DNA of 64,000 bases, taken from NCBI GenBank assembly GCA_012295275.1, contig CM022674.1, positions 2,666,001-2,730,000 of the forward strand, given 5' to 3'. The position numbers and the translations under genes were made by a program. Source of the DNA: Chrysomallon squamiferum. Its lineage: Eukaryota > Animalia > Mollusca. Positions 28,501 to 61,393 of the stretch are shown here, piece by piece. The notes below the pieces were generated by a model. That model ran no database searches, was not told the origin of the DNA, and saw only the letters and a program-made list of their open reading frames with translations. How positions within the stretch are numbered: position 1 is the stretch's first letter; the number at the start of each line of letters is the position of its first letter.

Positions 28501-31500
28501 TTCTGTTGTTAATTATCACAAAGTTGTAATTACTTGTAATTATTTCAGTGGTTAAATTTTCTCCAGGTGTGTATTTGAGACATTTCCATTCTTATTGTTC
28601 ATAGCACATAAATAACTGCAGTAAGAATATAATTAAGACTATTCAGATATTATCTGTACATTTATTCTGTTTATATATCATAATTCAGTTACAGGATTAA
28701 GTGTTACTATTCTGATATTACTCATATAAATCCTGAATAATTTTAACTCACCCAAGTATGACTGTTCTACATGTTTTTGGAATTTGTGAATAGTTTTCAA
28801 AGAAATGACAGGAAGATTTAAAATCAAATAGTAACTTCATATAAGACAAATTTCTATATAATTTATTTAATTGATTTCTGATGTCAACGTGTTCTGAGAA
28901 TGAAAAATGCATTAAATGGAAAGTTCGTGTCCCAAACCTAAAATAATGTCAGTGCAGTAATTTTCATTGTCTCTTGTTACATTGCTCAGATTTAGTCATT
29001 TCCAGTGATTTCTGACAACTGTTCTGTTGATTTATATCATGCATATCCATAATGTTTAGATAAATTTGGATCAGCTCTAGTAAATCTGTGTGTATTTCAG
29101 GTTGAATATGTCCAGTCACAAAAGCAGCAGAACTGCTGAGAAACAAGGTAATGCAGAGCCAGAACCTGCTGGCAAACCACCACCCCCTGAAAAGAAGAAA
29201 ACTATCAATTCCGAAACAAGGTAATTAATTAGAACTAATTTTTTACATAACTAATTGTTAAAATTGTGTTTTCATGAGTGCTTTTAAATATCATAATATA
29301 ATATCTCTATTTCAAAAATTGGGACATTTATTAGAACCGTTTTTATCTGATTATTTTTTTTTTTTTTGAAATGTTCCAGGAATATTATTATAGAATAAAA
29401 ATTGAGAATGTTGATACAAACAGACACACAGAGAAAAATAATCAAGTAATATTTATTTATCAGATATAACAGTGTTGTCACCCTGATTTGAAGTTCTACC
29501 CATGTTCATACTTATTTATTCCAAAAATTTAATATTTTAAGAACTTCTTATGGTACTAAATAAGTAAATATAAAATACTTTAAGAATTAAATTGAAAACA
29601 AACAAATATGAATAGTCTATTAAAAATGAGTACACAGAAAACTGAAAATATAATATGCATTGGGAAAATTGTTAAGCACTCTGGTAGAGAGAAAATGTTA
29701 CTTTGAGTGTCTAGATTACATCTGTAGTTAAAGGGTTCACTGGCAACTATTTTTATTTCTTTTATTCATTATATTGTCATATAATTACCAGTACTATTTA
29801 ATACTAAAAATATGTCATTCCAAAGTGTGGAGCTGCAGAGTTCATAAATACTCAAGATAACATTTTCAGAGAGAAAGTGTTACATTGAGTCTCTAGATTA
29901 CATCTGTAGTTAAAGGGTTCACTGGCAACTAAACATTCAGGTGCCTCCAACTCATCGCTCCACTTAAATGTTGGGTTTGTCAAATGGTCAACAAATATCA
30001 TTCTCAGTGCTAAGCTGATTCCACTTCCATTGTATATAAAATGTCCAACTATGATCAAATGTTCTCGAGTGGATTCAAAACTGAATTCATGACTGATCAA
30101 GGCAGAAGTGTTAAAACACTGTTTTGTACATAGCCTGTTGGAGGTCACTACTTAACTGATGACTGTAACTGTACTGAAGCTGATATCCTGTAGGTTTGAT
30201 ATCTTAAATTTATTCCTGTTATCTGCCATCTTTGTGTTTCTCTTGTCCACCATTGTGCCTTGTTGACACTGAATGACTGAGTTGTGGAGTTAAAGATCCC
30301 TGTCAGATACATGAGCAAACTCCAGTTCAAGAAAAACATGCAGACTTGATGCACTGGCCTATCAGATTGAAATCAGTTTTAACTGTGTTTCAGAAACAGG
30401 CAACATCATTCTGTTGTTAATTATCACAAAGTTGTAATTACTTGTAATTATTTCAGTGGTTAAATTTTCTCCAGGTGTGTATTTGAGACATTTCCATTCT
30501 TATTGTTCATAGCACATAAATAACTGCAGTAAGAATATAATTAAGACTATTCAGATATTATCTGTACATTTATTCTGTTTATATATCATAATTCAGTTAC
30601 AGGATTAAGTGTTACTATTCTGATATTACTCATATAAATCCTGAATAATTTTAACTCACCCAAGTATGACTGTTCTACATGTTTTTGAATTTGTGAATAG
30701 TTTTCAAAGAAATGACAGGAAGATTTAAAATCAAATAGTAACTTCATATAAGACAAATTTCTATATAATTTATTTAATTGATTTCTGATGTCAACGTGTT
30801 CTGAGAATGAAAAATGCATTAAATGGAAAGTTCGTGTCCCGAAACCTAAAATAATGTCAGTGCAGTAATTTTCATTGTCTCTTGTTACATTGCTCAGATT
30901 TAGTCATTTCCAGTGATTTCTGACAACTGTTCTGTTGATTTATATCATGCATATCCATAATGTTTAGATAAATTTGGATCAGCTCTAGTAAATCTGTGTG
31001 TATTTCAGGTTGAACATGTCCAGTCACAAAAGCAGCAGAACTGCTGAGAAACAAGGTAATGCAGAGCCAGAACCTGCTGGCAAACCACCCCCCCCTGAAA
31101 AGAAGAAAACAAGGTAATTAATTAGAACTAATTTTTTACATAACTAATTGTTAAAATTGTGTTTTCATGAGTGCTTTTAAATATCATAATATAATATCTC
31201 TATTTCAAAAATTGGGACATTTATTAGAACCGTTTTTATTTGATTATTTTTTTTTGAAATGTTCCAGGAATATTATTATAGAATAAAAATTGAGAATGTT
31301 GATACAAACAGACACACAGAGAAAAATAATCAAGTAATATTTATTTATCAGATATAACAGTGTTGTCACCCTGATTTGAAGTTCTACCCATGTTCATACT
31401 TATTTATTCCAAAAATTTAATATTTTAAGAACTTCTTATGGTACTAAATAAGTAAATATAAAATACTTTAAGAATTAAATTGAAAACAAACAAATATGAA

Positions 31501-34500
31501 TAGTCTATTAAAAATGAGTACACAGAAAACTGAAAATATAATATGCATTGGGAAAATTGTTAAGCACTCTGGTAGAGAGAAAATGTTACTTTGAGTGTCT
31601 AGATTACATCTGTAGTTAAAGGGTTCACTGGCAACTATTTTTATTTCTTTTATTCATTATATTGTCATATAATTACCAGTACTATTTAATACTAAAAATA
31701 TGTCATTCCAAAGTGTGGAGCTGCAGAGTTCATAATACTCAAGATAACATTTTCAGAGAGAAAGTGTTACATTGAGTCTCTAGATTACATCTGTAGTTAA
31801 AGGGTTCACTGGCAACTAAACATTCAGGTGCCTCCAACTCATCGCTCCACTTAAATGTTGGGTTTGTCAAATGGTCAACAAATATCATTCTCAGTGCTAA
31901 GCTGATTCCACTTCCATTGTATATAAAATGTCCAACTATGATCAAATGTGCTCTAGTGGATTCAAAACTGAATTCATGACTGATCAAGGCAGAAGTGTTA
32001 AAACACTGTTTTGTACATAGCCTGTTGGAGGTCACTACTTAACTGATGACTGTAACTGTACTGAAGCTGATATCCTGTAGGTTTGATATCTTAAATTTAT
32101 TCCTGTTATCTGCCATCTTTGTGTTTCTCTTGTCCACCATTGTGCCTTGTTGACACTGAATGACTGAGTTGTGGAGTTAAAGATCCCTGTCAGATACATG
32201 AGCAAACTCCAGTTCAAGAAAAACATGCAGACTTGATGCACTGGCCTATCAGATTGAAATCAGTTTTAACTGTGTTTCAGAAACAGGCAACATCATTCTG
32301 TTGTTAATTATCACAAAGTTGTAATTACTTGTAATTATTTCAGTGGTTAAATTTTCTCCAGGTGTGTATTTGAGACATTTCCATTCTTATTGTTCATAGC
32401 ACATAAATAACTGCAGTAAGAATATAATTAAGACTATTCAGATATTATCTGTACATTTATTCTGTTTATATATCATAATTCAGTTACAGGATTAAGTGTT
32501 ACTATTCTGATATTACTCATATAAATCCTGAATAATTTTAACTCACCCAAGTATGACTGTTCTACATGTTTTCGGAATTTGTGAATAGTTTTCAAAGAAA
32601 TGACAGGAAGATTTAAAATCAAATAGTAACTTCATATAAGACAAATTTCTATATAATTTATTTAATTGATTTCTGATGTCAACGTGTTCTGAGAATGAAA
32701 AATGCATTAAATGGAAAGTTCGTGTCCCAAAACCTAAAATAATGTCAGTGCAGTAATTTTCATTGTCTCTTGTTACATTGCTCAGATTTAGTCATTTCCA
32801 GTGATTTCTGACAACTGTTCTGTTGATTTATATCATGCATATCCATAATGTTTAGATAAATTTGGATCAGCTCTAGTAAATCTGTGTGTATTTCAGGTTG
32901 AATATGTCCAGTCACAAAAGCAGCAGAACTGCTGAGAAACAAGGTAATGCAGAGCCAGAACCTGCTGGCAAACCACCACCCCTGAAAAAAGAAGAAAACT
33001 ATCAATTCCGAAACAAGGTAATTAATTAGAACTAATTTTTTACATAACTAATTGTTAAAATTGTGTTTTCATGAGTGCTTTTAAATATCATAATATAATA
33101 TCTCTATTTCAAAAATTGGGACATTTATTAGAACCGTTTTTATCTGATTATGTTTTTTTTTAAATGTTCCAGGAATATTATTATAGAATAAAAATTGAGA
33201 ATGTTGATACAAACAGACACACAGAGAAAAATAATCAAGTAATATTTATTTATCAGATATAACAGTGTTGTCACCCTGATTTGAAGTTCTACCCATGTTC
33301 ATACTTATTTATTCCAAAAATTTAATATTTTAAGAACTTCTTATGGTACTAAATAAGTAAATATAAAATACTTTAAGAATTAAATTGAAAACAAACAAAT
33401 ATGAATAGTCTATTAAAAATGAGTACACAGAAAACTGAAAATATAATATGCATTGGGAAAATTGTTAAGCACTCTGGTAGAGAGAAAATGTTACTTTGAG
33501 TGTCTAGATTACATCTGTAGTTAAAGGGTTCACTGGCAACTATTTTTATTTCTTTTATTCATTATATTGTCATATAATTACCAGTACTATTTAATACTAA
33601 AAATATGTCATTCCAAAGTGTGGAGCTGCAGAGTTCATAAATACTCAAGATAACATTTTCAGAGAGAAAGTGTTACATTGAGTCTCTAGATTACATCTGT
33701 AGTTAAAGGGTTCACTGGCAACTAAACATTCAGGTGCCTCCAACTCATCGCTCCACTTAAATGTTGGGTTTGTCAAATGGTCAACAAATATCATTCTCAG
33801 TGCTAAGCTGATTCCACTTCCATTGTATATAAAATGTCCAACTATGATCAAATGTGCTCTAGTGGATTCAAAACTGCATTCATGACTGATCAAGGCAGAA
33901 GTGTTAAAACACTGTTTTGTACATAGCCTGTTGGAGGTCACTACTTAACTGATGACTGTAACTGTACTGAAGCTGATATCCTGTAGGTTTGATATCTTAA
34001 ATTTATTCCTGTTATCTGCCATCTTTGTGTTTCTCTTGTCCACCATTGTGCCTTGTTGACACTGAATGACTGAGTTGTGGAGTTAAAGATCCCTGTCAGA
34101 TACATGAGCAAACTCCAGTTCAAGAAAAACATGCAGACTTGATGCACTGGCCTATCAGATTGAAATCAGTTTTAACTGTGTTTCAGAAACAGGCAACATC
34201 ATTCTGTTGTTAATTATCACAAAGTTGTAATTACTTGTAATTATTTCAGTGGTTAAATTTTCTCCAGGTGTGTATTTGAGACATTTCCATTCTTATTGTT
34301 CATAGCACATAAATAACTGCAGTAAGAATATAATTAAGACTATTCAGATATTATCTGTACATTTATTCTGTTTATATATCATAATTCAGTTACAGGATTA
34401 AGTGTTACTATTCTGATATTACTCATATAAATCCTGAATAATTTTAACTCACCCAAGTATGACTGTTCTACATGTTTTTGGAATTTGTGAATAGTTTTCA

Positions 34501-37500
34501 AAGAAATGACAGGAAGATTTAAAATCAAATAGTAACTTCATATAAGACAAATTTCTATATAATTTATTTAATTGATTTCTGATGTCAACGTGTTCTGAGA
34601 ATGAAAAATGCATTAAATGGAAAGTTCGTGTCCCGAAACCTAAAATAATGTCAGTGCAGTAATTTTCATTGTCTCTTGTTACATTGCTCAGATTTAGTCA
34701 TTTCCAGTGATTTCTGACAACTGTTCTGTTGATTTATATCATGCATATCCATAATGTTTAGATAAATTTGGATCAGCTCTAGTAAATCTGTGTGTATTTC
34801 AGGTTGAATATGTCCAGTCACAAAAGCAGCAGAACTGCTGAGAAACAAGGTAATGCAGAGCCAGAACCTGCTGGCAAACCACCACCCCCTGAAAAGAAGA
34901 AAACTATCAATTCCGAAACAAGGTAATTAATTAGAACTAATTTTTTACATAACTAATTGTTAAAATTGTGTTTTCATGAGTGCTTTTAAATATCATAATA
35001 TAATATCTCTATTTCAAAAATTGGGACATTTATTAGAACCGTTTTTATCTGATTATTTTTTTTTTTTTGAAATGTTCCAGGAATATTATTATAGAATAAA
35101 AATTGAGAATGTTGATACAAACAGACACACAGAGAAAAAATAATCAAGTAATATTTATTTATCAGATATAACAGTGTTGTCACCCTGATTTGAAGTTCTA
35201 CCCATGTTCATACTTATTTATTCCAAAAATTTAATATTTTAAGAACTTCTTATGGTACTAAATAAGTAAATATAAAATACTTTAAGAATTAAATTGAAAA
35301 CAAACAAATATGAATAGTCTATTAAAAATGAGTACACAGAAAACTGAAAATATAATATGCATTGGGAAAATTGTTAAGCACTCTGGTAGAGAGAAAATGT
35401 TACTTTGAGTGTCTAGATTACATCTGTAGTTAAAGGGTTCACTGGCAACTATTTTTATTTCTTTTATTCATTATATTGTCATATAATTACCAGTACTATT
35501 TAATACTAAAAATATGTCATTCCAAAGTGTGGAGCTGCAGAGTTCATAAATACTCAAGATAACATTTTCAGAGAGAAAGTGTTACATTGAGTGTCTAGAT
35601 TACATCTGTAGTTAAAGGGTTCACTGGCAACTAAACATTCAGGTGCCTCCAACTCATCGCTCCACTTAAAAACAAATGTCATTCTCAGTGCTAAGCTGAT
35701 TCCACTTCCATTGTATATAAAATGTCCAACTATGATCAAATGTGCTCTAGTGGATTCAAAACTGAATTCATGACTGATCAGGGCAGAAGTGTTAAAACAC
35801 TGTTTTGTACATAGCCTGTTGGAGGTCACTACTTAACTGATGACTGTAACTGTACTGAAGCTGATATCCTGTAGGTTTGATATCTTAAATTTATTCCTGT
35901 TATCTGCCATCTTTGTGTTTCTCTTGTCCACCATTGTGCCTTGTTGACACTGAATGACTGAGTTGTGGAGTTAAAGATCCCTGTCAGATACATGAGCAAA
36001 CTCCAGTTCAAGAAAAACATGCAGACTTGATGCACTGGCCTATCAGATTGAAATCAGTTTTAACTGTGTTTCAGAAACAGGCAACATCATTCTGTTGTTA
36101 ATTATCACAAAGTTGTAATTACTTGTAATTATTTCAGTGGTTAAATTTTCTCCAGGTGTGTATTTGAGACATTTCCATTCTTATTGTTCATAGCACATAA
36201 ATAACTGCAGTAAGAATATAATTAAGACTATTCAGATATTATCTGTACATTTATTCTGTTTATATATCATAATTCAGTTACAGGATTAAGTGTTACTATT
36301 CTGATATTACTCATATAAATCCTGAATAATTTTAACTCACCCAAGTATGACTGTTCTACATGTTTTTGGAATTTGTGAATAGTTTTCAAAGAAATGACAG
36401 GAAGATTTAAAATCAAATAGTAACTTCATATAAGACAAATTTCTATATAATTTATTTAATTGATTTCTGATGTCAACGTGTTCTGAGAATGAAAAATGCA
36501 TTAAATGGAAAGTTCGTGTCCCGAAACCTAAAATAATGTCAGTGCAGTAATTTTCATTGTCTCTTGTTACATTGCTCAGATTTAGTCATTTCCAGTGATT
36601 TCTGACAACTGTTCTGTTGATTTATATCATGCATATCCATAATGTTTAGATAAATTTGGATCAGCTCTAGTAAATCTGTGTGTATTTCAGGTTGAATATG
36701 TCCAGTCACAAAAGCAGCAGAACTGCTGAGAAACAAGGTAATGCAGAGCCAGAACCTGCTGGCAAACCACCACCCCCTGAAAAGAAGAAAACTATCAATT
36801 CCGAAACAAGGTAATTAATTAGAACTCATTTTTTACATAACTAATTGTTAAAATTGTGTTTTCATGAGTGCTTTTAAATATCATAATATAATATCTCTAT
36901 TTCAAAAATTGGGACATTTATTAGAACCGTTTGTATTTGATTTTTTTTTTTTTGAAATGTTCCAGGAATATTATTATAGAATAAAAATTGAGAATGTTGA
37001 TACAAACAGACACACAGAGAAAAATAATCAAGTAATATTTATTTATCAGATATAACAGTGTTGTCACCCTGATTTGAAGTTCTACCCATGTTCATACTTA
37101 TTTATTCCAAAAATTTAATATTTTAAGAACTTCTTATGTTACTAAATAAGTAAATATAAAATACTTTAAGAATTAAATTGAATACAAACAAATATGAATG
37201 GTCTATTAAAAATGAGTACACAGGAAAGTGAAAATATAATATGCATCTGGAAAATTGTTAAGCACTCTGGTATTGGACATATTTTTATTTCTTTTATTCA
37301 TTATATTGTCATATAATTACAAGTACTATTTAATACTAAAAATATGTCATTCCAAAGTGTGGAGCTGCAGAGTTCATAAATACTCAAGATAACATTTTCA
37401 GAGAGAAAGTGTTACATTGAGTGTCTAGATTACATCTGTTGTTAAAGGGTTCACTGGCAACTAAACATTCAGGTGCCTCCAACTCATCGCTCCACTTAAA

Positions 37501-40500
37501 AACAAATGTCATTCTCAGTGCTAAGCTGATTCCACTTCCACTGTATATAAAATGTCCAACTATGATCAAATGTGCTCTAGTGGATTCAAAACTGAATTCA
37601 TCACTGATCAGGGCAGAAGTGTTAAAACACTGTTTTGTATGTAGCCTGTTGGAGGTCACTAATTAACTGTAAGTGTACTGAAGCTTATATCCTGTAGGTT
37701 TGATATCTTAAATTTATTCCTGTTATCTGCCATCTTTGTGTTTCTCTTGTCCACCATTGTGCCTTGTTGACACTGAATGACTGAGTTGTGGAGTTAAAGA
37801 TCCCTGTCAGATACATGAGCAAACTCCAGTTCAAGAAAAACATGCAGACTTGATGCACTGGTCTATCAGATTGAAATCAGTTTTAACTGTGTTTCAGAAA
37901 CAGGCAACATCATTCTGTTGTTAATTATCACAAAGTTGTAATTACTTGTAATTATTTCAGTGGTTAAATTTTCTCCAGGTGTGTATTTGAGACATTTCCA
38001 TTCTTATTGTTCATAGCACATAAATAACTGCAGTAAGAATATAATTAAGACTATTCAGATATTATCTGTACATTTATTCTGTTTATATATCATAATTCAG
38101 TTACAGGATTAAGTGTTACTATTCTGATATTACTCATATAAATCCTGAATAATTTTAACTCACCCAAGTATGACTGTTCTACATGTTTTTGGAATTTGTG
38201 AATAGTTTTCAAAGAAATGACAGGAAGATTTAAAATCAAATAGTAACTTCATATAAGACAAATTTCTATATAATTTATTTAATTGATTTCTGATGTCAAC
38301 GTGTTCTGAGAATGAAAAATGCATTAAATGGAAAGTTCGTGTCCCGAAACCTAAAATAATGTCAGTGCAGTAATTTTCATTGTCTCTTGTTACATTGCTC
38401 AGATTTAGTCATTTCCAGTGATTTCTGACAACTGTTCTGTTGATTTATATCATGCATATCCATAATGTTTAGATAAATTTGGATCAGCTCTAGTAAATCT
38501 GTGTGTATTTCAGGTTGAATATGTCCAGTCACAAAAGCAGCAGAACTGCTGAGAAACAAGGTAATGCAGAGCCAGAACCTGCTGGCAAACCACCACCCCC
38601 TGAAAAGAAGAAAACTATCAATTCCGAAACAAGGTAATTAATTAGAACTAATTTTTTACATAACTAATTGTTAAAATTGTGTTTTCATGAGTGCTTTTAA
38701 ATATCATAATATAATATCTCTATTTCAAAAATTGGGACATTTATTAGAACCGTTTTTATCTGATTATTTTTTTTTTGAAATGTTCCAGGAATATTATTAT
38801 AGAATAAAAATTGAGAATGTTGATACAAACAGACACACAGAGAAAAATAATCAAGTAATATTTATTTATCAGATATAACAGTGTTGTCACCCTGATTTGA
38901 AGTTCTACCCATGTTCATACTTATTTATTCCAAAAATTTAATATTTTAAGAACTTCTTATGGTACTAAATAAGTAAATATAAAATACTTTAAGAATTAAA
39001 TTGAAAACAAACAAATATGAATAGTCTATTAAAAATGAGTACACAGAAAACTGAAAATATAATATGCATTGGGAAAATTGTTAAGCACTCTGGTAGAGAG
39101 AAAATGTTACTTTGAGTGTCTAGATTACATCTGTAGTTAAAGGGTTCACTGGCAACTATTTTTATTTCTTTTATTCATTATATTGTCATATAATTACCAG
39201 TACTATTTAATACTAAAAATATGTCATTCCAAAGTGTGGAGCTGCAGAGTTCATAAATACTCAAGATAACATTTTCAGAGAGAAAGTGTTACATTGAGTG
39301 TCTAGATTACATCTGTAGTTAAAGGGTTCACTGGCAACTAAACATTCAGGTGCCTCCAACTCATCGCTCCACTTAAAAACAAATGTCATTCTCAGTGTTA
39401 AGCTGATTCCACTTCCATTGTATATAAAATGTCCAACTATGATCAAATGTGCTCTAGTGGATTCAAAACTGCATTCATGACTGATCAGGGCAAAAGTGTT
39501 AAAACACTGTTTTGTATGTAGCCTGTTGGAGGTCACTAATTAACTGTAAGTGTACTGAAGCTTATATCCTGTAGGTTTGATATCTTAAATTTATTCCTGT
39601 TATCTGCCATCTTTGTGTTTCTCTTGTCCACCATTGTGCCTTGTTGACACTGAATGACTGAGTTGTGGAGTTAAAGATCCCTGTCAGATACATGAGCAAA
39701 CTCCAGTTCAAGAAAAACATGCAGACTTGATGCACTGGCCTATCAGATTGAAATCAGTTTTAACTGTGTTTCAGAAACAGGCAACATCATTCTGTTGTTA
39801 ATTATCACAAAGTTGTAATTACTTGTAATTATTTCAGTGGTTAAATTTTCTCCAGGTGTGTATTTGAGACATTTCCATTCTTATTGTTCATAGCACATAA
39901 ATAACTGCAGTAAGAATATAATTAAGACTATTCAGATATTATCTGTACATTTATTCTGTTTATATATCATAATTCAGTTACAGGATTAAGTGTTACTATT
40001 CTGATATTACTCATATAAATCCTGAATAATTTTAACTCACCCAAGTATGACTGTTCTACATGTTTTTGGAATTTGTGAATAGTTTTCAAAGAAATGACAG
40101 GAAGATTTAAAATCAAATAGTAACTTCATATAAGACAAATTTCTATATAATTTATTTAATTGATTTCTGATGTCAACGTGTTCTGAGAATGAAAAATGCA
40201 TTAAATGGAAAGTTCGTGTCCCGAAACCTAAAATAATGTCAGTGCAGTAATTTTCATTGTCTCTTGTTACATTGCTCAGATTTAGTCATTTCCAGTGATT
40301 TCTGACAACTGTTCTGTTGATTTATATCATGCATATCCATAATGTTTAGATAAATTTGGATCAGCTCTAGTAAATCTGTGTGTATTTCAGGTTGAATATG
40401 TCCAGTCACAAAAGCAGCAGAACTGCTGAGAAACAAGGTAATGCAGAGCCAGAACCTGCTGGCAAACCACCACCCCCTGAAAAGAAGAAAACTATCAATT

Positions 40501-41740
40501 CCGAAACAAGGTAATTAATTAGAACTAATTTTTTACATAACTAATTGTTAAAATTGTGTTTTCATGAGTTCTTTTAAATATCATAATATAATATCTCTAT
40601 TTCAAAAATTGGGACATTTATTAGAACCGTTTGTATTTTTTTTTTTTTTTTTTTAAATGTTCCAGGAATATTATTATAGAATAAAAATTGAGAATGTTGA
40701 TACAAACAGACACACAGAGAAAAATAATCAAGTAATATTTATTTATCAGATATAACAGTGTTGTCACCCTGATTTGAAGTTCTACCCATGTTCATACTTA
40801 TTTATTCCAAAAATTTAATATTTTAAGAACTTCTTATGTTACTAAATAAGTAAATATAAAATACTTTAAGAATTAAATTGAAAACAAACAAATATGAATG
40901 GTCTATTAAAAATGAGTACACAGGAAACTGAAAATATAATATGCATCTGGAAAATTGTTAAGCACTCTGGTATTGGACATATTTTTATTTCTTTTATTCA
41001 TTATATTGTCATATAATTACCAGTACTATTTAATACTAAAAATATGTCATTCCAAAGTGTGGAGCTGCAGAGTTCATAAATACTCAAGATAACATTTTCA
41101 GAGAGAAAGTGTTACATTGAGTGTCTAGATTACATCTGTAGTTAAAGGGTTCACTGGCAACTAAACATTCAGGTGCCTCCAACTCATCGCTCCACTTAAA
41201 AATTGGGTTTGTCAAATGGTCAACAAATGTCATTCTCAGTGCTAAGCTGATTCCACTTCCACTGTATATAAAATGTCCAACTATGATCAAATGTGCTCTA
41301 GTGGATTCAAAACTGAATTCATGACTGATCAGGGCAGAAGTGTTAAAACACTGTTTTGTATGTAGCCTGTTGGAGGTCACTAATTAACTGTAAGTGTACT
41401 GAAGCTTATATCCTGTAGGTTTGATATCTTAAATTTATTCCTGTTATCTGCCATCTTTGTGTTTCTCTTGTCCACCATTGTGCCTTGTTGACACTGAATG
41501 ACTGAGTTGTGGAGTTAAAGATCCCTGTCAGATACATGAGCAAACTCCAGTTCAAGAAAAACATGCAGACTTGATGCACTGGCCTATCAGATTGAAATCA
41601 GTTTTAACTGTGTTTCAGAAACAGGCAACATCATTCTGTTGTTAATTATCACAAAGTTGTAATTACTTGTAATTATTTCAGTGCTTAAATTTTCTCCAGG
41701 TGTATATTTGTGAAATTTCCATTTTTATTGTTTATATTAC
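25591..41740 (+). repeat. Tandem array of ~1.9-kb units (about 8.5 units), each full unit carrying one coding exon
   Basis: Near-identical sequence recurs with exon starts at 27197, 29101, 31009, 32897, 34803, 36691, 38514 and 40391 (spacing 1.82-1.91 kb). The same shadow ORFs recur in the ORF track. Confidence 0.97.
27197..40510 (+). CDS. Eight copies of the ATG-containing 120-nt exon of the NLR-like gene
   Basis: tatttcag|G TTG AAT ATG TCC...ACA AG|gtaatt encodes LNMSSHKSSRTAEKQGNAEPEPAGKPPPPEKKKTINSET. Copies: 27197-27316, 29101-29220, 31009-31113 (105 nt), 32897-33017 (121 nt), 34803-34922, 36691-36810, 38514-38633, 40391-40510. The phase-2 end joins in frame to exon 42835. Confidence 0.75.
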
Positions 41741-41759
41741 ATAATTTACTACAATCAGA

Positions 41760-42300
41760 GTATAACTAAAACTATTCCGATATTATCTTTACATTTTGTT
41801 TATATTATTTAATGCAAATGTCAAAATATTTGTTACAAAACTGATATATAACTTAGTACACTATTGTGATAATCATTATATTTACTACAAAAGAAAAATG
41901 TTACTTTATATAACTATTCTGATAATTAGTGCATTTACTACAAAGCTAAGATACAGCTTAGAATAACTGATAGTTATTACATTTATTACAAAATTAATAT
42001 AATCTTAGCCTAGCTATTGTGATTATTATATTTACTATAAAATTACTATATAATTTAGAATAATTATTATGTTGATTACAAAACTAATATATATATATAT
42101 CTTAGAATAGCTACTGTGATAATTACATTTAGTACAAACCTAAGATATAACTTAGAATAACTATTATGATAATTATTACATTCACTACAAAACTAAGATA
42201 ATATAAGTTAATATAACTATTCTAATAGTTATAATATTTACAACAAAACTAAAGTATGTCATTGTATGACTATTGTGATAATTATTTAGTACTGCAGTTT
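41760..42300. repeat. Degenerate AT-rich minisatellite, ~50-60 bp period
   Basis: Recurring approximate unit ataattattacatttactacaaaactaagatataacttagaataactattgtg directly after the 1.9-kb array. Confidence 0.7.
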
Positions 42301-42834: not shown

Positions 42835-42968
42835 CTCAGCCATTATGGATGTCAGAGAAGAGAGTTCAGAAAATTCATCTGATTTAACAGTTGCATCTTC
42901 CTCAGACAGTATGAAAAAAAATGATTAATATCTTTAATAATGAAGTATTTCAAATCCTGTTTACTTTT

Positions 42969-43000: not shown

Positions 43001-44022
43001 CCTTTTTTTAGTTATGCTTTGTAAAGCAAGACATTTTTGTTTTATATTCATAATAAATTAACAGTCAAAGATTTTGGTTTGGTTTTTGTTAGAAAATACA
43101 CATTTATTATTACTTGATTATTTTATGCACAATTAGTTAACAATTTTATTGTTATATTCAGAAATACTGTTCAGACAGATTTTGTTAAAACTGTACACTG
43201 CCATATCTCTGCATGCACATAAAATGTGTTTAGAAATAATATTTAGAAATTGTTAATTTAAATAATTTCTTTTCCTCCACTGACAAAGATACTGGAAGAT
43301 CACAACCAGTGGTAGAACACAATGTAAATATCAGCACAGTTCAGAAGGCTGTGTCTAACAACAGGAATGTTGTGTTTGGAAATCAAGTTACTAAAATCAG
43401 TAAGTTAAAAACTGAAAGTTTCCTTTCCTCTACCTTCTTAATAAATAAGTGAATACACGTCGCAGTAGTCATTAGTATTTTTCTGTCAGACACTGTGACC
43501 AGAAGAACATAGAAACATGCACATACATGTATAGACATAATACATACAAACATATGTACATGTATACTCAATTAACGTATACACAGAAGACATACGTACA
43601 CACACATAAACATGCAGACATGCATTAGACACGCACACACATATTCAGAGACAGATTATCTTCTTAAACTATTAATATATATGCCTGTCATTATTATTGC
43701 CTGTAAATATTGAAATATGGTCCAAGGTACAATAACAACAACAACAACATTAATAATAATACCAACAATATCAATAAATAAATAACATCAGTGATAAGAA
43801 ACTAGAACAGTAGATTTGACAATAGGATGAATAATTATAATAAATGAATAACAAAAAATAAAATTCTAATAATTTTATATATTTAGTGTTTCACGAATAA
43901 AGTGCAGTGTAGTTGTACACATCCCTTTAATCATTCTCTTTTATTCATCATCAATATAAACTTATTTGTTTTATTTTTTATTATTTCAGCAAAGACTGAT
44001 GGACGAGCATCCAATATCAAAG
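42835..44022 (+). CDS. Three small linker exons of the NLR-like gene, the middle one with a RHIM/cRHIM-like motif
   Basis: 42835-42908 (SAIMDVREESSENSSDLTVASSSD, phase 2 to 1), 43289-43399 (TGRSQPVVEHNVNISTVQKAVSNNRNVVFGNQVTKI, phase 1 to 1), 43990-44022 (KTDGRASNIK, phase 1 to 1). All have AG/GT boundaries, no stops, and phases that match the NTPase exon starting at 44269. Confidence 0.8.
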
Positions 44023-44268: not shown

Positions 44269-47200
44269 AGTCTACCAGGTTAGAGTTAAACTCAGTTGAC
44301 TGGAGAGTCTATGTGGAAACAAGAGTAGAGAAAAGAGGTGTAGAACTTTTGAAGAAGCATGGTGTTGTGATTGTAGTAGGATGTCCAGGTTCAGGGAAGA
44401 CATCTCTAGCTTTGAGCATAATGAGACAGATAGAAAATGAAGAAAAAATAAAACTTTACAAGCTGACTCATCACAATGAATTTTATGACATCTCTTTGAA
44501 AATAAAAAATGTGTTGTTCTCATTGATGATATATTTGGTAAGACTAATCTTGTTTCAGATTTTATAGTCATCATGGAAACTAAAATTTCCAAACATATGG
44601 AATCATGTTCAGAATGGTTCTTTGAAATGTATTATTACTTTAAGAAAGCAAATATTTTCAGAAGCTAAAATTGGTTTGAAGGAATTTGGTCTGTTTAATG
44701 AGAATCATGTTCTTGATCTGCAGAGTGATGACTGTTGTCTGCTTCATGATGAAAAGAAAAAAATTCTTAACAATTATCTCGAATTAAAGAATGTTAAAAT
44801 GAATCAATATGATAAACACACTATCTTATTTCTGAGTTCATGTAAAGAATTAGGATTTCCTCAGATTTGTGTGTATTATGTTAATTCAAGTGATGCACAG
44901 AAAAGAGGAGTTAAGTTTTTTAACAAACCTATAGAATATCTTGGACAACAGCTAGAAAATGTGAAAAATGACAAATCTTTACAGATCAATTACTTGGTTC
45001 TACTGCTACTCTTGTTCAAGCAAGGCAGTCTCAGTGTTGATTCACTGGACCATTTTGAAAATGACATTGACAGTGACATAATGAAATTAGTAAGACTGCT
45101 AGAGGGAGCCTGTCTGAGTCTGAAAAACACTGGTCTCAGAGATATAAAGAAAACAGCTGATGAAATGTGTGGTACCTATTTGATGTGTTCACACAATAAA
45201 TATACATTTATTCACCAGTCAGTGTTTGACTGTTTATTTCTGATGTTTACATCAGAGTTTCCAAAGAAAGCAGCAGAATTGCTAGAAGTGTGTCCAGTTT
45301 CCATGTTGTTAGAATATGTTGTGACGCCTGGAGTGTCTAACAAAAGTCACATTACAATGACACTGAAACCTGACTGTTTTGATGTTCTTGCTCGCAGATT
45401 CACTGACCTGCTGGCATCAGATAATGCCAGTGAAATTGTTTCACATCCATCACTGAAAGATGATGAGTTTTTGAAGTATCTCATACAGGAAAAAATGTTT
45501 TATGGAAGGTTTTCTGAAATACTGCATCAGGAACTTTCTCTAGGTCGAAATAGTCATGGTTATATATCATTCGTGCATGCAAACAATGCTAATGAAATGT
45601 TTAGCCTCATTCCATATGTTTCTGACAATGATTCAAACTTTAATTCGTATGACATGAGGAGGGTGAGAATTAGAAAAGATTTTATAGAGACATCATTGAG
45701 AGTTAAAGAAGATTTTATAAAGACATCATATGTTGCAAGTGAGTGTATTGTGGGCAAACTAAGAACATTGTCACAATTTTTCACAAATATAGTGTGTGAA
45801 ATGGAATTAACTTACCAGAAAACAGAACTTCTGAATTTTTCTTGTTTGTTTGGTGATGAAGATGTTGTGAGGATGTTGCTAAAATCAGGTGTTACTCCAT
45901 ATTTTGAAACATTCACTATAGCTGCTTGTTCAAAAACAGACAGTGCTACTGTATTCAGAGAATTGATACAGTATAAAAAGGATATGAAATTGACTATGTG
46001 TTCCTGCTTGTTATGTATTTCAATTTGTTCAGAAAACATGAATATTGCCTGTCTTTTGGCTGACATGATAAACAATGAGGAACACAACCATGTCTTCAAG
46101 AAAAGAGCTGTGAAACTGTTATTGATTTGGTTCCACAGACATGAAAATATGTACCAATGGAAATCTTTTTTAGATGCCCAGAGACTTTTAAAGTTGTTGA
46201 TGTAAGCCAACTTTTTAAGAAACTGGTCACCATTGATATAATAAAAGAAATTAAAAACATTGCTATCATTGCTGCTGGTCAGAGGAATTCAGGTGTTATA
46301 AAAGAAATAGTAAAACTGAAACCTGATTGTTTAAATGTTGAGAACAGAGATAAAGTATTTTAGCAGCAACAATATGGGGATGTCACTGATACAGTGAATT
46401 TTCTCATTGAACAGAGACAAAATGATACGGATGAGAACAATTGGAAAAAAGTCAGACACTGAAAGCAGCTGTGACGTTTAACAGTGCTGATGTTGTTCAG
46501 AGTCTTCTTGATAAAGGAGCTGATCCTAATGTAAATGAAGCTATTAACCAGAAATTGATTCACTTGTTTGAACATAAAACTAGTTTGAAATTGTTGCCTT
46601 CAGACTCACCTCTCCACATTTCAGTTCTGTTTGGTGACTTAGATATAATAAAATCACTAATAAAGAGAAATGCTGATGTTAACGCAGTAAACAGTGAGGG
46701 GAAAACTCCACTTCATGAAGCTGTAAACGCAGAGACAAACAGAAAGGAAATAGCTTTGTTGTTACTGGAAAATGGTGCTGATGTTAACATAACAGATAAA
46801 CAACAGAATTCAGCATTGCACATAGCATCTCAAATTGATATAGATGTAGTGAAAGAAGTAACAAAAAGGGGTGTTGAAATAAATGTAATTAACACTGAAG
46901 GGGAAACTCCTCTTCTTTTGTCCTTACGCAATAACATACCAGAAATAGCTTTACATTTACTAAAACAAGGAGCTGACCCTAATTTTACAGACGATGGTGG
47001 CTATTCTGTTTTACACACAGCAGCTGAATATGGAAATATAGAAATTGTGACAGCACTGGTTGAAAAAGGAGTTGATGTAAATAGTAAAAACTCTCAAGGA
47101 GGAACTCCTCTTTTAACATCTGTTAATTATGATGAAGATGATCTTCATCCATCTTCACATGATGAAGAATGTAAAGCGGCTTTTTATATACAGGAAGATG

Positions 47201-50200
47201 GAGCTGATCCTAATTTAAAAGACAGTGATAACATTTCTGTTTTACATCTAGCAGCTAAATATGGAAATATAGAACTTGTAACAGCACTGACTGTAAAAGG
47301 TTTTGATGTAAATATTAAAAACAGAAAAGGTGAAACGGTTCTTCTTACAGCACTGAAATCTTATATATATAGTTTTGAAAAACATCACACATGGATTAAA
47401 ACACATTTTGATGTAAATATTAAAACTAGTCAAGGTGAAACTCCTCTTTTTGCAGCTGTTAAGCATGGACACAACAAAGTAGCTTTGTACTTACTGGATC
47501 ATGGAGCTGAACCTAATTCTGTTTTGCGTCTAGCAGAAGAAATGGAAAATTTAGAAATTGTGACAGCACTGATTGAGAAAAGTGTTGATGTAAATATTAG
47601 AAATGCTCGAGGTGAAACTCCTCTTTCTATAGTTGTTAATTATGATGAAGATAAACTTCATCTGTATCTGAATAGTGAAATGGATAAAGTAGTGTTTCAT
47701 TTACTGGAACAAGGAGCTGATCCTAATTTAACAGACAATGATAACAACTCTGCTTTACACTTAGCAGCTAAACATGGAAATACAGAAATTGTGAAAGCAC
47801 TGATTGAAAAAGGTGTTGAGGTAAACCTTAAAAACTGTTATGGAGAAACTCCTCTTTTTACAGCTGTTGAGGATGTTGATAAACATGATCTATCCGTGGT
47901 TTTAGAGAAATGTAAAATAAGTTTGTTTTTACTGGAAAATGGAGCTGATCCTAATTTAACAAACAATGATAAAAATTCTGTTTTATACGTAGCAGCTAAA
48001 CAAGGAAATATAGAAATTGTGAAAGTTTTGATTGAAAAAGGTGTCGATGTGAATATTAAAAATAGTAGAGGTAAAACTCCAATTTTAGGAGCTTTTGATT
48101 ATGATATATTTGATGCTTCTCAATCTAGGAATGATGAAAAATGTAGGGTAGTTTTTTATTTACTAGAACACAGAGCTGATCCCAGTTTAACAGACGATGA
48201 TCAGAATTCAGTTTTACACTTAGCAGCTGAACATGGAAATATAGAAATCGTGAAAGCACTGATTGAAAAAAGTCTTGATGTAAATACTAAGAATAGTAGA
48301 GGTGAAACACCTTTATTTTCAACTCTTTGTTATGAAGAGCATAAACTTTATCCATCTCTTCGTTATGATATTAATCCGTCTCTGAAAGAGGAAAAATTGA
48401 AAGTACTTGTTCATTTACTGGAACATGGAGCTGACCCTAATATAACACGCAATGATCAGAATTCTCTTTTACACCTGGCAGCTATTTCTGGTGATATGAA
48501 CATTTTGAGGGAACTAATTAAAAATGGTTGTGATGTTAATATTACAAACGGTGAAGGGGAAACTCCTCTTCTTCAAGTTCTGAGTTCCAAAGCACGTGCT
48601 TCTAAAATAATTCAGTCTTTTACGACTTTTAACAAAGATATTATTATTTTTTTACTGGAACATGGTGCTGATCCACGTGTTACAGAAAAATATTCTAACA
48701 ACTCTCTTTTACACTTAGCAGCTAAAGAACAAAAGATAGAAATTGTGAAACTACTGATTGAAAAAGGTTTTGATGTAAATATTAAAAACAACAGAGGTAA
48801 AACTCCTCTTTTTGCAGCTGTTGATTATAATCTATATCTGAATGACAAAAAATGTAAAGTATTTTTTCATTTACTGGAACATGGAGCTCATCCTAATTTA
48901 ACTGACAGTGATAACAATTCAGTTTTACACAGAGCAGCTAACCATGGAAATGTAGAAAGTATGACAGCACTCATTGAAAAAGGTGCTGATGTAAATATTA
49001 AAAACAACAGAGGTGAAACTCCTCTTTTTAAAGCTGTTGATTATAATCTATGTCAAATAGTTTTTCATTTACTGGAACATGGAGCTGATCCTAATTTAAT
49101 TGACAGTGATAACAATTCAGTTTTAGACAGAGCAGCTAAACATGGAAATGTAGAAATTATGACAGCACTGATTGAAAAAGGTGCTGATGTAAATATTAAA
49201 AACAACACAGGTGAAACTCCTCTTTTTACACCTGTTAAGTATGTTGAAGATGAAGATGATCCATTTCTGAATGATGAAAAATGTGAAGTAGTTTTTCATT
49301 TACTGGAATGTGGTGCTGATCCTAATTTAACTGACAGTGATAAAAATTATGTTTTATACGTAGCAGCTAAACAAGGAAATATAGAAATTGTGAAAGTTTT
49401 GATTAAAAAAGGTGTCGATGTGAATATTAAAAATAGTAGAGGTGAAACTCCAATTTTAGGAGCTCTTGATTATAATATATTTGATGTTTCTCAATTTCTG
49501 AATGATAAAAAATGTAAAGTAGTTTTTTATTTACTGGAACATGGAGCTGATCCCAATTTAACAGACGATGATCAGAATTCAGTTTTACACAGAGCAGCTG
49601 AACATGGAAATATAGAAATCGTGAAACTACTGATTGAAAAAGGTGTTGATGTAAATATTAAAAACAACAGAGGTGAAACTCCTCTTTTTGCAGCTGTTGA
49701 TTATAATCTATATCTGAATGATCAAAAATGTAAAGTAGTTTTTCATTTACTGGAACATGGAGCTGATCCCTAATTTAACTGACAGTGATAACAATTCTGT
49801 TTTACACAGAGCAGCTAAAGATGGAAATGTAGAAATTGTGACAGCTCTGATTGAAAAAGGTGTTGATGTAAATATTAAAAACAACAGAGGTGAAACTCCT
49901 CTTCTTGTAGCTGCTAATTATGAAAAGGCTGAACTGTTTCCATGTCTGAAAAACCAAAAAGTAAAACAGCTCTTCATTTACTGGAACATGGTGCTGATCC
50001 TGATTTAATTGACAATGATAAAAATTCTGTTTTACACTTAGCAGCTAAATATGGAAATACAGAAATTGTGAAAGCACTGATTGAAAAAGATGTTGAGGTA
50101 AACCTTAAAAACTGTTATGGAAAAACTCCTCTTTTTACAGCTGTTGAGGATGTTGATAAACTTGATCTATCCGTGGATTTAGAGAAATGTAAAATAAGTT

Positions 50201-53200
50201 TGTTTTTACTGGAAAATGGAGCTGATCCTAATTTAACAGACAATGATAAAAATTCTGTTTTACACTTAGCAGCTAAACATGGAAATGTAGAACTTGTGAA
50301 AGTTTTGATTAAAAAAGGTGTTGATGTGAATATTAAAAATAGTAGAGGTAAAACTCCAATTTTAGGAGCTCTTGATTATAATATATGTGATGTTTCTCGA
50401 TCTAGGAATGATGAAAACTGTAAAGTATTTCTTCATTTACTGGAACATGGAGCTGATCTCAATTTAACAGACGATGATCAGAATTCAGTTTTACACTTAG
50501 CAGCTAAACATGGAAATATAGAAATCGTGAAAGTACTGATTGAAAAAGGTCTTGATGTAAATACTAAGAATAGTAGAGGTGAAACACCTTTATTTTCAAC
50601 TCTTTGTTATGATGAGCATAAACTTTATCCATCTCTGAAAGAGGAAAAATTGAAAGTATTTTTTCATTTACTGGAACATGGAGCTGACCCTAATATAACA
50701 CGCAATGATAAGAATTCTCTTTTACACCTGGCAGCTATTTCTGGTAATATGAATATTTTGAGGGAACTAATTAAAAATGGTTGTGATGTTAATATTACAA
50801 ACGGTGAAGGGGAAACTCCTCTTCTTCAAGTTCTGAGTCCCAAAGGACATACTTTTAACATAACTCAGTCTTTTATGACTTTTTACGACGATATTATTAT
50901 TTTTTTACTGGAACATGGTGCTGATCCACGTGTTACAGAAAAATATTCTAACAATACTGCTTTACACTTTGCAGCTCAACAACGAAATATAGAAATTGTG
51001 ACAGCACTGATTGAAAAAGGTGTTGATGTAAATATTAAAAACAACAGAGGTGAAACTCCTCTTTTTACAGCTGTTAAGTATGTTGAAGATCAAAATGATC
51101 TATTTCTCAGTGATGGAAAATGTGAAGTAGTTTTTCTTTTACTGGAATGTGGAGCTGATCCTAATTTAACTGACAGTGATAACAATTCTGTTTTACACTT
51201 AGCAGCTAAAAAAGGAAATATAGAAATTGTGACTGCACTGATTGAAAAAGGTGTTGATGTAAATATTAAAAACAACAGAGGTGAAACTCCTCTTTTTGCA
51301 GTTGTTGATTATAATCTATATCTGAATGACAAAAAATGTAAAGTAGTTTTTCATTTACTGGAACATGGAGCTGATCCTAATTTAACTGACAGTGATAACA
51401 ATTCTGTTTTACACTTAGCAGCTAAAAAAGGAAATGTAGAAATTATGAAACCTCTGACTGAAAAAGGTGCTGATGTAAATATTAAAAACTGTAGAGGTGA
51501 AGCTCCTCTTCTTGTAGCTGCTAATTATGAAAAGGATCAACTGTTTCCATATCTGAAAAACCGAAAAAGTAAAACAGCTCTTCATTTACTGGAACATGGT
51601 GCTGATCCTGATTTAATTGACAATGATAAAAATTCTGTTTTACACTTAGCAGCTAAATATGGAAATACAGAAATTGTGAAAGCACTGATTGAAAAAGATG
51701 TTGAGGTAAACCTTAAAAACTATTATGGAAAAACTCCTCTTTTTACAGCTGTTGAGGATGTTGATAAACTTGATCTATCCGTGGATTTAGAGAAATGTAA
51801 AATAAGTTTGTTTTTACTGGAAAATGGAGCTGATCCTAATTTAACAGACAATGATAAAAATTCTGTTTTACACTTAGCAGCTAAATATGGAAATACAGAA
51901 ATTGTGAAAGCACTGATTGAAAAAGATGTTGAGGTAAACCTTAAAAACTGTTATGGAAAAACTCCTCTTTTTACAGCTGTTGAGGATGTTGATAAACTTG
52001 ATCTATCCGTGGTTTTAGAGAAATGTAAAATAAGTTTGTTTTTACTGGAAAATGGAGCTGATCCTAATTTAACAGACAATGATACAAATTCTGTTTTACA
52101 CTTAGCAGCTAAACATGGAAATGTAGAACTTGTGAAAGTTTTGATTAAAAAAGGTGTCGATGTGAATATTAAAAATAGTAGAGGTGAAACTCCAATTTTA
52201 GGAGCTCTTGATTATAATATATGTGATGTTTCTCGATCTAGGAATGATGAAGACTGTAAAGTATTTCTTCATTTACTGGAACATGGAGCTGATCCCAATT
52301 TAACAGACGATGATCAGAATTCTGTTTTACACTTAGCAGCTAAACATGGAAATACAGAAATTGTGAAAGTACTGATTGAAAAAGGTCTTGATGTAAATAC
52401 GAAAAATAGTAGAGGTGAAACTCCTTTATTTTCAACTCTTTGTTATGATGAGTATAAACTTTATCCATCTCTGAAAAAGGAAAAATCGAAAGTATTTCTT
52501 CATTTACTAGAACATGGAGCTGATCCCAATTTAACAGACGATGATCAGAATTCAGTTTTACACTTAGCAGCTAAACATGGAAATATAGAAATTGTGAAAG
52601 CACTGATTGAAAAAGGTCTTGATGTAAATACGAAAAATAGTAGAGGTGAAACTCCTTTATTTTCAACTCTTTGTTATGATGAGCATAAACTTTATCCATC
52701 TCTGAAAAAGGAAAAATCGAAAGTATTTCTTCATTTACTAGAACATGGAGCTGATCCTGATTTAATTGACAATGATAAAAATTCTGTTTTACACTTAGCA
52801 GCTAAATATGGAAATACAGAAATTGTGAAAGCACTGATTGAAAAAGATGTTGAGGTAAACCTTAAAAACTGTTATGGAAAAACTCCTCTTTTTACAGCTG
52901 TTGAGGATGTTGATAAACTTGATCTATCCGTGGTTTTAGAGAAATGTAAAATAAGTTTGTTTTTACTGGAAAATGGAGCTGATCCTAATTTAACAGACAA
53001 TGATAAAAATTCTGTTTTATACATAGCAGCTAAACAAGGAAATATAGAAATTGTGAAAGTTTTGATTAAAAAAGGTGTCGATGTGAATATTAAAAATAGT
53101 AGAGGTAAAACTCAATTTTTAGGAGCTCTTGATTATAATATATGTGATGTTTCTCGATCTAGGAATGATAAAAAATGTGAAGTAGTTTTTTATTTACTGG

Positions 53201-55614
53201 AACATGGAGCTGATCCCAATTTAACAGACGATGATCAGAATTCAGTTTTACACTTAGCAGCTAAACATGGAAATATAGAAATTGTGAAAGCACTGATTGA
53301 AAAAGGTCTTGATGTAAATACGAAAAATAGTAGAGGTGAAACTCCTTTATTTTCAACTCTTTGTTATGATGAGCATAAACTTTATCCATCTCTGAAAAAG
53401 GAAAAATCGAAAGTATTTCTTCATTTACTAGAACATGGAGCTGATCCCAATTTAACAGACGATGATCAGAATTCAGTTTTACACTTAGCAGCTAAATGTG
53501 GAAATACAGAAATTGTGAAAGCACTGATTGAAAAAGGTCTTGATGTAAATACGAAAAATAGTAGAGGTGAAACTCCTTTATTTTCAACTCTTTGTTATGA
53601 TGAGGATGAACTTGATCCATCTTTTTGTTATGATGAGTATGAACTTTATCGATCTCTGAAAAAGGAAAAATCGAAAATATTTCTTTATTTACTGGAACAT
53701 GGAGCTGATCCCAATTTAACAGACGATGATCAGAATTCTGTTTTACACTTAGCAGCTAAACATGGAAATATAGAAATCGTGAAAGCACTGATTGAAAAAG
53801 GTCTTGATGTAAATACGAAAAATAGTAGAGGTGAAACTCCTTTATTTTCAACTCTTTGTTATGATGAGGATGAACTTGATCCATCTCTTTGTTATGATGA
53901 GTATGAACTTTATCCATCTCTGAAAAAGGAAAAATCGAAAATATTTCTTTATTTACTGGAACATGGAGCTGATCCCAATTTAACAGACGATGATCAGAAT
54001 TCTGTTTTACACTTAGCAGCTAAACATGGAAATATAGAAATTGTGAAAGCACTGATTGAAAAAGGTCTTGATGTAAATACGAAAAATAGTAGAGGTGAAA
54101 CTCCTTTATTTTCAACTCTTTGTTATGATGAGCATAAACTTTATCCATCTCTGAAAAAGGAAAAATCGAAAGTATTTCTTCATTTACTAGAACATGGAGC
54201 TGATCCTGATTTAATTGACAATGATAAAAATTCTGTTTTACACTTAGCAGCTAAATATGGAAATACAGAAATTGTGAAAGCACTGATTGAAAAAGATGTT
54301 GAGGTAAACCTTAAAAACTGTTATGGAAAAACTCCTCTTTTTACAGCTGTTGAGGATGTTGATAAACTTGATCTATCCGTGGATTTAGAGAAATGTAAAA
54401 TAAGTTTGTTTTTACTGGAAAATGGAGCTGATCCTAATTTAACAGACAATGATAAAAATTCTGTTTTATACATAGCAGCTAAACAAGGAAATATAGAAAT
54501 TGTGAAAGTTTTGATTAAAAAAGGTGTCGATGTGAATATTAAAAATAGTAGAGGTAAAACTCCAATTTTAGGAGCTCTTGATTATAATATATGTGATGTT
54601 TCTCGATCTAGGAATGATAAAAAATGTGAAGTAGTTTTTTATTTACTGGAACATGGAGCTGATCCCAATTTAACAGACGATGATCAGAATTCAGTTTTAC
54701 ACTTAGCAGCTAAACATGGAAATACAGAAATTGTGAAAGTACTGATTGAAAAAGGTCTTGATGTAAATACGAAAAATAGTAGAGGTGAAACTCCTTTATT
54801 TTCAACTCTTTGTTATGATGAGTATAAACTTTATCCATCTCTGAAAAAGGAAAAATCGAAAGTATTTCTTCATTTACTAGAACATGGAGCTGATCCCAAT
54901 TTAACAGACGATGATCAGAATTCAGTTTTACACTTAGCAGCTAAACATGGAAATATAGAAATTGTGAAAGCACTGATTGAAAAAGGTCTTGATGTAAATA
55001 CGAAAAATAGTAGAGGTGAAACTCCTTTATTTTCAACTCTTTGTTATGATGAGCATAAACTTTATCCATCTCTGAAAAAGGAAAAATCGAAAGTATTTCT
55101 TCATTTACTAGAACATGGAGCTGATCCCAATTTAACAGACGATGATCAGAATTCAGTTTTACACTTAGCAGCTAAATGTGGAAATACAGAAATTGTGAAA
55201 GCACTGATTGAAAAAGGTCTTGATGTAAATACGAAAAATAGTAGAGGTGAAACTCCTTTATTTTCAACTCTTTGTTATGATGAGGATGAACTTGATCCAT
55301 CTCTTTGTTATGATGAGTATGAACTTTATCCATCTCTGAAAAAGGAAAAATCGAAAATATTTCTTTATTTACTGGAACATGGAGCTGATCCCAATTTAAC
55401 AGACGATGATCAGAATTCTGTTTTACACTTAGCAGCTAAACATGGAAATATAGAAATCGTGAAAGCACTGATTGAAAAAGGTGTTGATGTAAATGTTATC
55501 AATTCAACAGGTGAAACTCCTCTTGATAAGGCTACGAGCTACAGATTTCACTGTAAGGAAAGTGACACTATTTTGTATTTATTGGAGCATGGTGCTAAAC
55601 ACAGTAACAGATAA
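44269..55614 (+). CDS. Giant terminal exon: nSTAND3-type STAND NTPase, helical/winged-helix region and about 80 ankyrin repeats (NLR-like receptor); broken by several 1-nt frameshifts in this assembly
   Basis: YVETRVEKRGVELLKKHGVVIVVGCPGSGKT (Walker A), CVVLIDDIFGK (Walker B, in the shifted frame ~44512-44545), IITLRKQIF (sensor-1), LGFPQIC (GxP), YTFIHQSVFD (MHD-like). ORFs 46441-49773, 49757-50008 and 49942-55614 contain TPL/SVLHLAA...GADPN/GVDVN ankyrin repeats. Stop TAA at 55612-55614. Confidence 0.92.
47000..55560 (+). repeat. Coding tandem repeat of ~228-264-bp two-ankyrin cassettes with very high nucleotide identity
   Basis: Blocks such as aattcagttttacacttagcagctaaacatggaaatatagaaattgtgaaagcactgattgaaaaagg recur about every 230 bp. 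Identity is highest from 51.6 to 55.5 kb. Confidence 0.95.
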
Positions 55615-56854: not shown

Positions 56855-56889
<35 letters not shown>

Positions 56890-56906
56890 CAATATGTTAA
56901 TGTATG

Positions 56907-56937
<31 letters not shown>

Positions 56938-61135: not shown

Positions 61136-61190
<55 letters not shown>

Positions 61191-61352: not shown

Positions 61353-61393
<41 letters not shown>

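Follow-up and report, generated by a model that had tools for sequence, protein, structure and literature searches.

The 64-kb window (the whole stretch of DNA analysed here) is AT-rich, intron-containing animal DNA, and its central feature is a gastropod gene on the + strand. In the spliced frame of this gene, a charged, Pro/Ser-rich N-terminus of ~80 residues leads to a short motif, which is followed by an nSTAND3 NTPase (PF20720) and a long ankyrin array. A probable 5′ non-coding exon lies at 25434–25588, with its start placed from an AG and its donor at 25588, where GT comes next; in RNA run X2, the loose end preceding 40391 is similar to the final bases of this exon. From 25588 to 41805, the + strand carries a tandem array of ~1.9-kb units (89–98% identity by self-BLAST), and every unit includes a copy of the first coding exon with its ATG. 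The eight copies start at 27197, 29101, 31009, 32897, 34803, 36691, 38514 and 40391, and all are 120 nt long except for two, of 105 and 121 nt. The last copy (40391–40510, phase 2-2, placed by an RNA joint) encodes a charged, Pro-rich segment of low beta propensity. X2 contains a joint 40492→42833 whose end matches the 105-nt form, and RNA joints into the exon at 42835 in X2 and X4 likewise have ends like that form. This array could represent alternative first-exon use, a repeated N-terminus or an assembly artefact.

Downstream of the array, the second coding exon (42835–42908, phase 2-1, AG/GT ends) encodes a Ser/Glu-rich linker and is followed by the motif exon (43289–43399) and then by a 33-nt phase 1-1 exon (43990–44022). 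The latter has RNA joints on both sides and leads into the first NTPase helix, as the matching segment of homolog P0010 begins helix 28–45. The NTPase and its following helical region occupy 44269–46205 (PF20720 at E 7.5e-11 and 5.9e-05 on two pieces), with the Walker A sequence at 44379–44402 and a Walker B-like VVLIDD in another frame at 44513–44530. The ankyrin array extends over 46206–55614 in ORFs of 1112 and 1893 aa, with frame breaks near 46355–46435, 49770 and 49930, and is recognised by Pfam. The succession of a PF20720 NTPase and ankyrin repeats is that of an nSTAND3-ankyrin receptor. Elsewhere in the window, a spliced cytochrome P450 gene lies at 2200–7400 on the + strand (PF00067 in all three pieces tested). 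Small Cys-rich, exon-like pieces in repeated form occur at 9200–15650, near 9350, 10050, 12200, 14500 and 15450, and two of their ORFs that were tested gave no Pfam match. Tandem repeats of ~2.5 kb (89–95% identity) fill 56226–64000, downstream of the receptor gene.

The motif is encoded on a 111-nt exon, a multiple of three, with AG at 43287–43288, GT at 43400 and phase 1 at both ends. Its core, AVSNNRNVVFGNQVTKI (43348–43398), is the top-scoring site of the homolog profile described below, and codons 43369–43380 read VVFG; splice ends, phases and codons all agree with the exon proposed in the first-pass annotation. That annotation also placed the motif just before the NTPase. It is indeed upstream, with its Gly at residue 93 of the spliced frame and 55 residues before Walker A, but the 33-nt exon separates it from the NTPase exon (start at 44269). 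A GT..AG joint 42908→43289 is present in RNA contigs from all four of the runs X1, X2, X3 and X4, and a second, 43399→43990, in three of the four (X1, X3 and X4). These contigs come from one study and were matched at 80% likeness, so paralogs contribute to the joints. Run X5, of unrecorded kind and extending over the introns, contains neither 42908→43289 nor 44020→44267. Because RNA joints flank it on both sides, the motif exon is a real, included and spliced part of the gene, which answers the question of inclusion raised with the first-pass proposal.

The related suggestion that this exon might be spliced out without a frameshift found no counterpart: skipping joints (42908→43990 or 42908→44269) are absent among the 15 of 18 joints listed, in contigs that drop rare forms. 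The 33-nt exon (1-1) and the 120-nt first coding exon (2-2) are also symmetric and, with three of four short coding exons having this property, symmetry alone says little. A literature search on exon shuffling yielded nothing relevant. Mid-exon joints with unknown letters between their ends, such as 43346→43990 in X2, are most simply read as diverged paralogs. In X1 and X2, some paralog contigs enter the motif exon ~8 bases further upstream (joint 42906→43281), suggesting that these paralogs use a different acceptor. Paralog contigs have indels of +6, −12 and similar sizes upstream of the motif core, and one diverged contig end retains VFGDQHIEI. Among 40 substitution rows listed, none falls in 43361–43390; with 85 more rows not displayed, this view of variation at the core is qualitative.

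In the assembled sequence, an in-frame TAG (44565–44567) just after Walker A ends the frame at 209 residues, and the continuous frame through the NTPase that a receptor of this class would have is interrupted. Further breaks occur at 46142–46435 (several), 49770 and 49930. The assembled copy could not make a full receptor, and this gene copy may be broken. One explanation, whose chances we place a little below even, is that the copy is a disabled paralog or encodes a shortened product of 209 residues in which the motif is retained, rather than being a full receptor marred by assembly errors; such a truncated product could have a Pirk-like decoy role. Two frame changes and the TAG lie between Walker A and the remaining NTPase, several more breaks lie in 46142–46435, and breaks are denser in 44490–46440, where ~6 fall within 2.2 kb against 2 across the 9 kb of the ankyrin array. 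This clustering in the NTPase and linker is unlike uniform sequencing error. By contrast, the long ankyrin ORFs are nearly intact, some breaks fall in short homopolymer runs typical of long-read error, and an extra base at 44569/44570 is absent from all X1, all X3 and most X5 contig depth, in contigs that were matched at 85% likeness and may be paralogs. As this copy may carry either a lesion or an assembly error, we propose the mechanism below for the family as a whole.

The closest named relatives come from Gigantopelta aegis, with ~35–44% identity, and in a quick tree of 63 rows the window protein clusters with eight Gigantopelta proteins (SH-aLRT 99). The motif is present in three of these eight relatives, P0003, P0008 (in both of its NTPase modules) and P0010, at 57–62 residues before Walker A versus 55 here, giving spacings from Gly to Walker A of 55, 57, 61 and 62 in the closest clade; the second P0008 module has a spacing of 112, possibly through a gene-model error. 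The corresponding sequences are LTVKDCRSVQFGCTTHKHY in P0008, LKNCRETNVGC in P0010 and VTGNQNVHVGD in P0003. Among the other five relatives, two have no upstream region in their models, P0001 and P0007 carry degenerate versions, and P0009 has, by eye, a Gly-less look-alike ~160 residues upstream. In bivalves, P0105 (INNSSGVEIGC) and P0132 carry the motif 93 and 98 residues before Walker A. The precomputed family PF28177 is annotated on the motif-bearing proteins P0003 and P0010 and is absent from P0001, P0002, P0004, P0105 and P0132.

Could such a motif have arisen by chance, as an N/V-rich piece of disordered linker that has no role of its own? We consider this very unlikely. For statistical comparison, 66 upstream pieces were taken from 151 homologs, the choice being limited to proteins with a regular Walker A preceded by 70 residues or more. 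With the window excluded, an unsupervised search of these segments recovered a G-centred motif in two of the three best of eight runs. It was mixed there with a second motif from a different clade, and the best match of the G-centred motif to the window is the exon motif, in register. A profile built from five mollusc homolog sites (three Gigantopelta and two bivalve), with the window sequence left out, scores AVSNNRNVVFGNQVTKI at 14.7 bits, first of the 46,284 stop-free six-frame 17-mers in the window, with the next at 11.9. Shuffling the N-terminus 3000 times never produced a score of 14.7 bits, and shuffling the exon 5000 times did so in 3 cases. Some observations do fit a chance stretch: a simple h-x-h-G pattern arises in ~20% of exon shuffles, and the motif is absent from most homologs. 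In the wider family it is patchy, with 5 of 61 other segments above the 95th null percentile against ~3 expected. A regular expression matches 9 of 66 homolog segments versus 1.3, an enrichment to which we give little weight because the expression was composed after the homologs had been viewed and P0008 is counted as two modules. Nevertheless, recovery of the motif by an unsupervised search, its presence in both gastropods and bivalves, and its rank in a homolog-only profile largely refute the chance reading, and by these comparisons the motif is more than chance.

Conservation relative to the flanks, on which the first-pass proposal was to be judged, gives a divided answer. The motif recurs in register and in position in homologs, and its core (BLOSUM 0.8–1.4 versus P0003, P0008 and P0010) stands above the upstream flank (−0.5 for P0008 and 0.2 for P0003). 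It is no better conserved than residues +7 to +22 (0.7–1.25), although that stretch includes the first NTPase helix.

What occupies this position in other family members? In 10 of 23 homologs chosen for their long N-termini, the region before the NTPase contains caspase, CARD, Death, DED, SAM or HEPN domains, and these folded signalling domains therefore mark it as the output end of the family. A homolog search with the Walker A piece returned 0 of 237 candidates. Among distant homologs, other RHIM-flavoured motifs lie upstream in P0076 (VQVG and IQIG), in the scallop protein P0061 (FDHAENMVFG), in the Solemya protein P0103 (YTQIG) and in P0093, P0131, P0040 and P0036; these may be separate motif classes. 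Another clade (P0013, P0017, P0026 and P0028) has a conserved beta-rich motif of the S-Y-I-N-x-V-x-Y-K type upstream of the NTPase, with a repeat before it, which is a candidate second signalling tag.

RHIMs are motifs through which cell-death proteins form cross-beta amyloid and bind one another. The RHIM of RIPK1 contains IYNSTGIQIG, and the Drosophila proteins PGRP-LC and Imd contain LTNSTDVTFG and FSNANNLHFG, sequences with which the first-pass annotation aligned the exon; the PGRP-LC and Imd sequences were not confirmed in the paper searched for them. The spacing deduced from this alignment, h-x-N-x-x-[GDN]-h-x-h-G, does not generalise, as it matches only 1 of 66 homolog segments. Nor did a RHIM profile support the assignment: Pfam RHIM is not reported for the exon (E up to 10) or for 11 homolog segments, in searches whose HMMER filters drop most weak matches. 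The canonical RHIM core is (V/I)-Q-(V/I/L/C)-G (PMC13506858, in its available part), whereas the core here is VVFG, with V in place of the Gln of the tetrad. The cRHIM core is looser, VxxG or IxxG with an invariant Gly (available portions of PMC13506858 and PMC9387487), and VVFG has this form with a Gly that is invariant in alignment A2, which is a weak criterion. The accessible text of a deep mutagenesis study of RIPK1 and RIPK3 (bioRxiv 10.64898/2026.02.19.706818) places a nucleating tetrad at −11, −9, −3 and −1 from the Gly. Here these positions are K, V, V and F, so that three of the four nucleation positions, −9, −3 and −1, are hydrophobic; in P0008 and P0105 all four are filled by aliphatic residues.

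Structural databases offer a further comparison. A six-sequence profile searched against 177,635 PDB sequences aligns with the tetrad of the RIPK3 RHIM chain 6jpd (VFNNCSEVQIGN), which ranks second of four (E 0.26) behind a serpin; with a 12-sequence profile, 6jpd ranks fourth of four (E 2.4). This match to the RIPK3 RHIM is suggestive and below significance. The motif exon alone gave no PDB match, and one homolog segment gave only a chance match to an ankyrin. ESM Atlas matches to the exon (unnamed short proteins and NUMOD families) were dismissed, with a recognition value of 2242 below the mark of 2300, and residues 1–40 of P0010 gave no usable match there. The first-pass reading of a RHIM- or cRHIM-like element thus survives in its VxxG core, its three nucleation positions and its predicted disordered setting at the effector end of a STAND protein, and fails on the canonical tetrad. 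On sequence grounds we call the motif RHIM-like, outside the canonical RHIM definition, and regard it as probably a signalling tag of cRHIM type carried by nSTAND3-ankyrin receptors of molluscs.

RHIM and cRHIM motifs lie in unstructured regions, and the AlphaFold model of homolog P0010 predicts the same here. Residues 1–28, including the motif, have pLDDT <50 and no secondary structure; pLDDT is ~26 over residues 1–20, a low value that may partly reflect few aligned rows at the N-terminus, and a confident NTPase follows. The motif is predicted to sit in a disordered tail immediately ahead of the first helix of the NTPase and is not docked on the NTPase in this model. When the P0010 model was used for a fold search, all entries listed were ankyrin-repeat proteins.

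In fungi, NLR-like receptors have been shown to signal through amyloid, and the same has been proposed in bacteria and amphioxus. In the present gene, splicing, domain order and conservation of the motif are observed and its disorder is predicted from a homolog, and we infer oligomerisation, amyloid assembly and a partner by analogy. We consider it moderately likely that this conserved RHIM-like motif on a gastropod nSTAND3-ankyrin (NLR-like) gene is an amyloid-seeding output tag. By analogy with STAND biology and NWD2/HET-S, binding of a ligand to the ankyrin array would switch the nSTAND3 NTPase to an oligomer. Oligomerisation would then cluster the N-terminal tails, allowing the V..V-x-F-G motifs to stack into a cross-beta seed. 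Finally, this seed could template a partner with a matching motif, either a RIPK/IMD-type adaptor or another effector. The 64-kb window contains no second site with a matching partner motif, and a weak motif-profile search for partners recovered, of 435 candidates, only four of the proteins from which the profile was derived.

A different mechanism would preserve the conservation but dispense with amyloid. The motif could be a conserved short linear motif that adds a beta strand to a folded partner, or an autoinhibitory latch on the NTPase or the ankyrins; we think this possible, though doubtful. A latch or docking strand would account for the nearly constant distance to Walker A within the closest clade and for downstream residues that are conserved as well as the core, and it sits comfortably with the lack of a RHIM profile match and of a partner in the window or the weak database search. 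The longer spacings of the bivalve proteins and of the second P0008 module speak against it, as do the undocked tail in the AlphaFold model and the alignment of the h-x-N-x-x-x-h-x-h-G pattern on the RIPK3 RHIM.

An amyloid-seeding tag would have close parallels in fungi. In NWD2/HET-S, a STAND receptor carries at its N-terminus a motif of 21 residues that serves, once ligand has bound, as the template for an amyloid fold, according to the accessible text of PMC4344463, and RHIM-like PP motifs on fungal NLRs have been tested experimentally (PMC12881547 and PMC7889193, each available in part). As far as these partial sources describe them, NWD2/HET-S (PMC4344463) and the PP motif of PNT1/HELLP (PMC12881547) share with the gene described here a short tail motif directly ahead of a STAND NTPase, with a repeat sensor after it, and in the fungal systems as in this gene a motif at the effector end replaces a folded signalling domain. 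NLR-associated amyloid motifs precede a STAND NTPase in proteins that end in a repeat sensor, which is the arrangement seen here. In contrast to the fungal systems, in their available descriptions, the present gene is animal, has nSTAND3 rather than NACHT or NB-ARC, and places ~80 low-complexity residues before the motif; moreover, the window holds no neighbouring effector gene that bears a matching motif, and amyloid formation is here a proposal.

Among animals, Branchiostoma RHIM-NACHT-repeat proteins such as BF82280 carry a RHIM where CARD-related domains usually sit (Kajava et al. 2014, PMC4262963). Like the mollusc gene, BF82280-type proteins are invertebrate STAND receptors with a RHIM or RHIM-like motif in the CARD-type slot, but they belong to a different phylum and NTPase clade and their motifs match a RHIM profile, whereas the mollusc motif has no Pfam RHIM match. 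With the RHIMs of RIPK1, RIPK3, ZBP1 and TRIF and the cRHIMs of PGRP-LC, PGRP-LE and Imd, as presented in the accessible parts of PMC13506858 and PMC9387487, the motif has in common the VxxG core, an Asn at −7, hydrophobic residues at −9, −3 and −1, an unstructured context and the weak 6jpd alignment. It differs from them in having VVFG rather than [VI]Q[VILC]G, in the Lys at −11, and in its STAND-ankyrin host, which is neither a kinase, an adaptor nor a PGRP. nSTAND3+ankyrin proteins are on record from bivalves (supplements of PMC8195603, available in part) and combine a PF20720 NTPase with an ankyrin array, as here; unlike here, the N-terminal domains described for them are TRADD-N and other folded types (Kaur et al. 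2021, PMC8195603). The term RHIM has no occurrences in the main text and supplementary files of that paper, as covered by all files except 13 and by part of file 4. In a literature search conducted largely without full texts, we found no report of a RHIM-like motif on mollusc nSTAND3-ankyrin proteins. RHIMs on amphioxus NACHT-repeat receptors and amyloid motifs on fungal NLRs are thus already known, and the mollusc nSTAND3-ankyrin version is probably new.

More broadly, mollusc nSTAND3-ankyrin receptors might constitute an NLR amyloid signalosome of the fungal style, an extension that we advance tentatively and would not expect to hold in full. A diversified cRHIM-type tag would stand in for death-fold domains in several clades, the effector that is seeded would depend on which paralog-specific version is present, and truncated copies that keep the tag would act as decoys. 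We know of no tested output for the large nSTAND3-ankyrin families of molluscs. A RHIM-like tag would provide a concrete and cheaply testable mechanism for one branch of this family, and the motif profile offers a tool with which to search mollusc genomes for the missing effector. The tag also bears on how far amyloid signalling reaches in animals, a question posed in the available text of PMC7889193.
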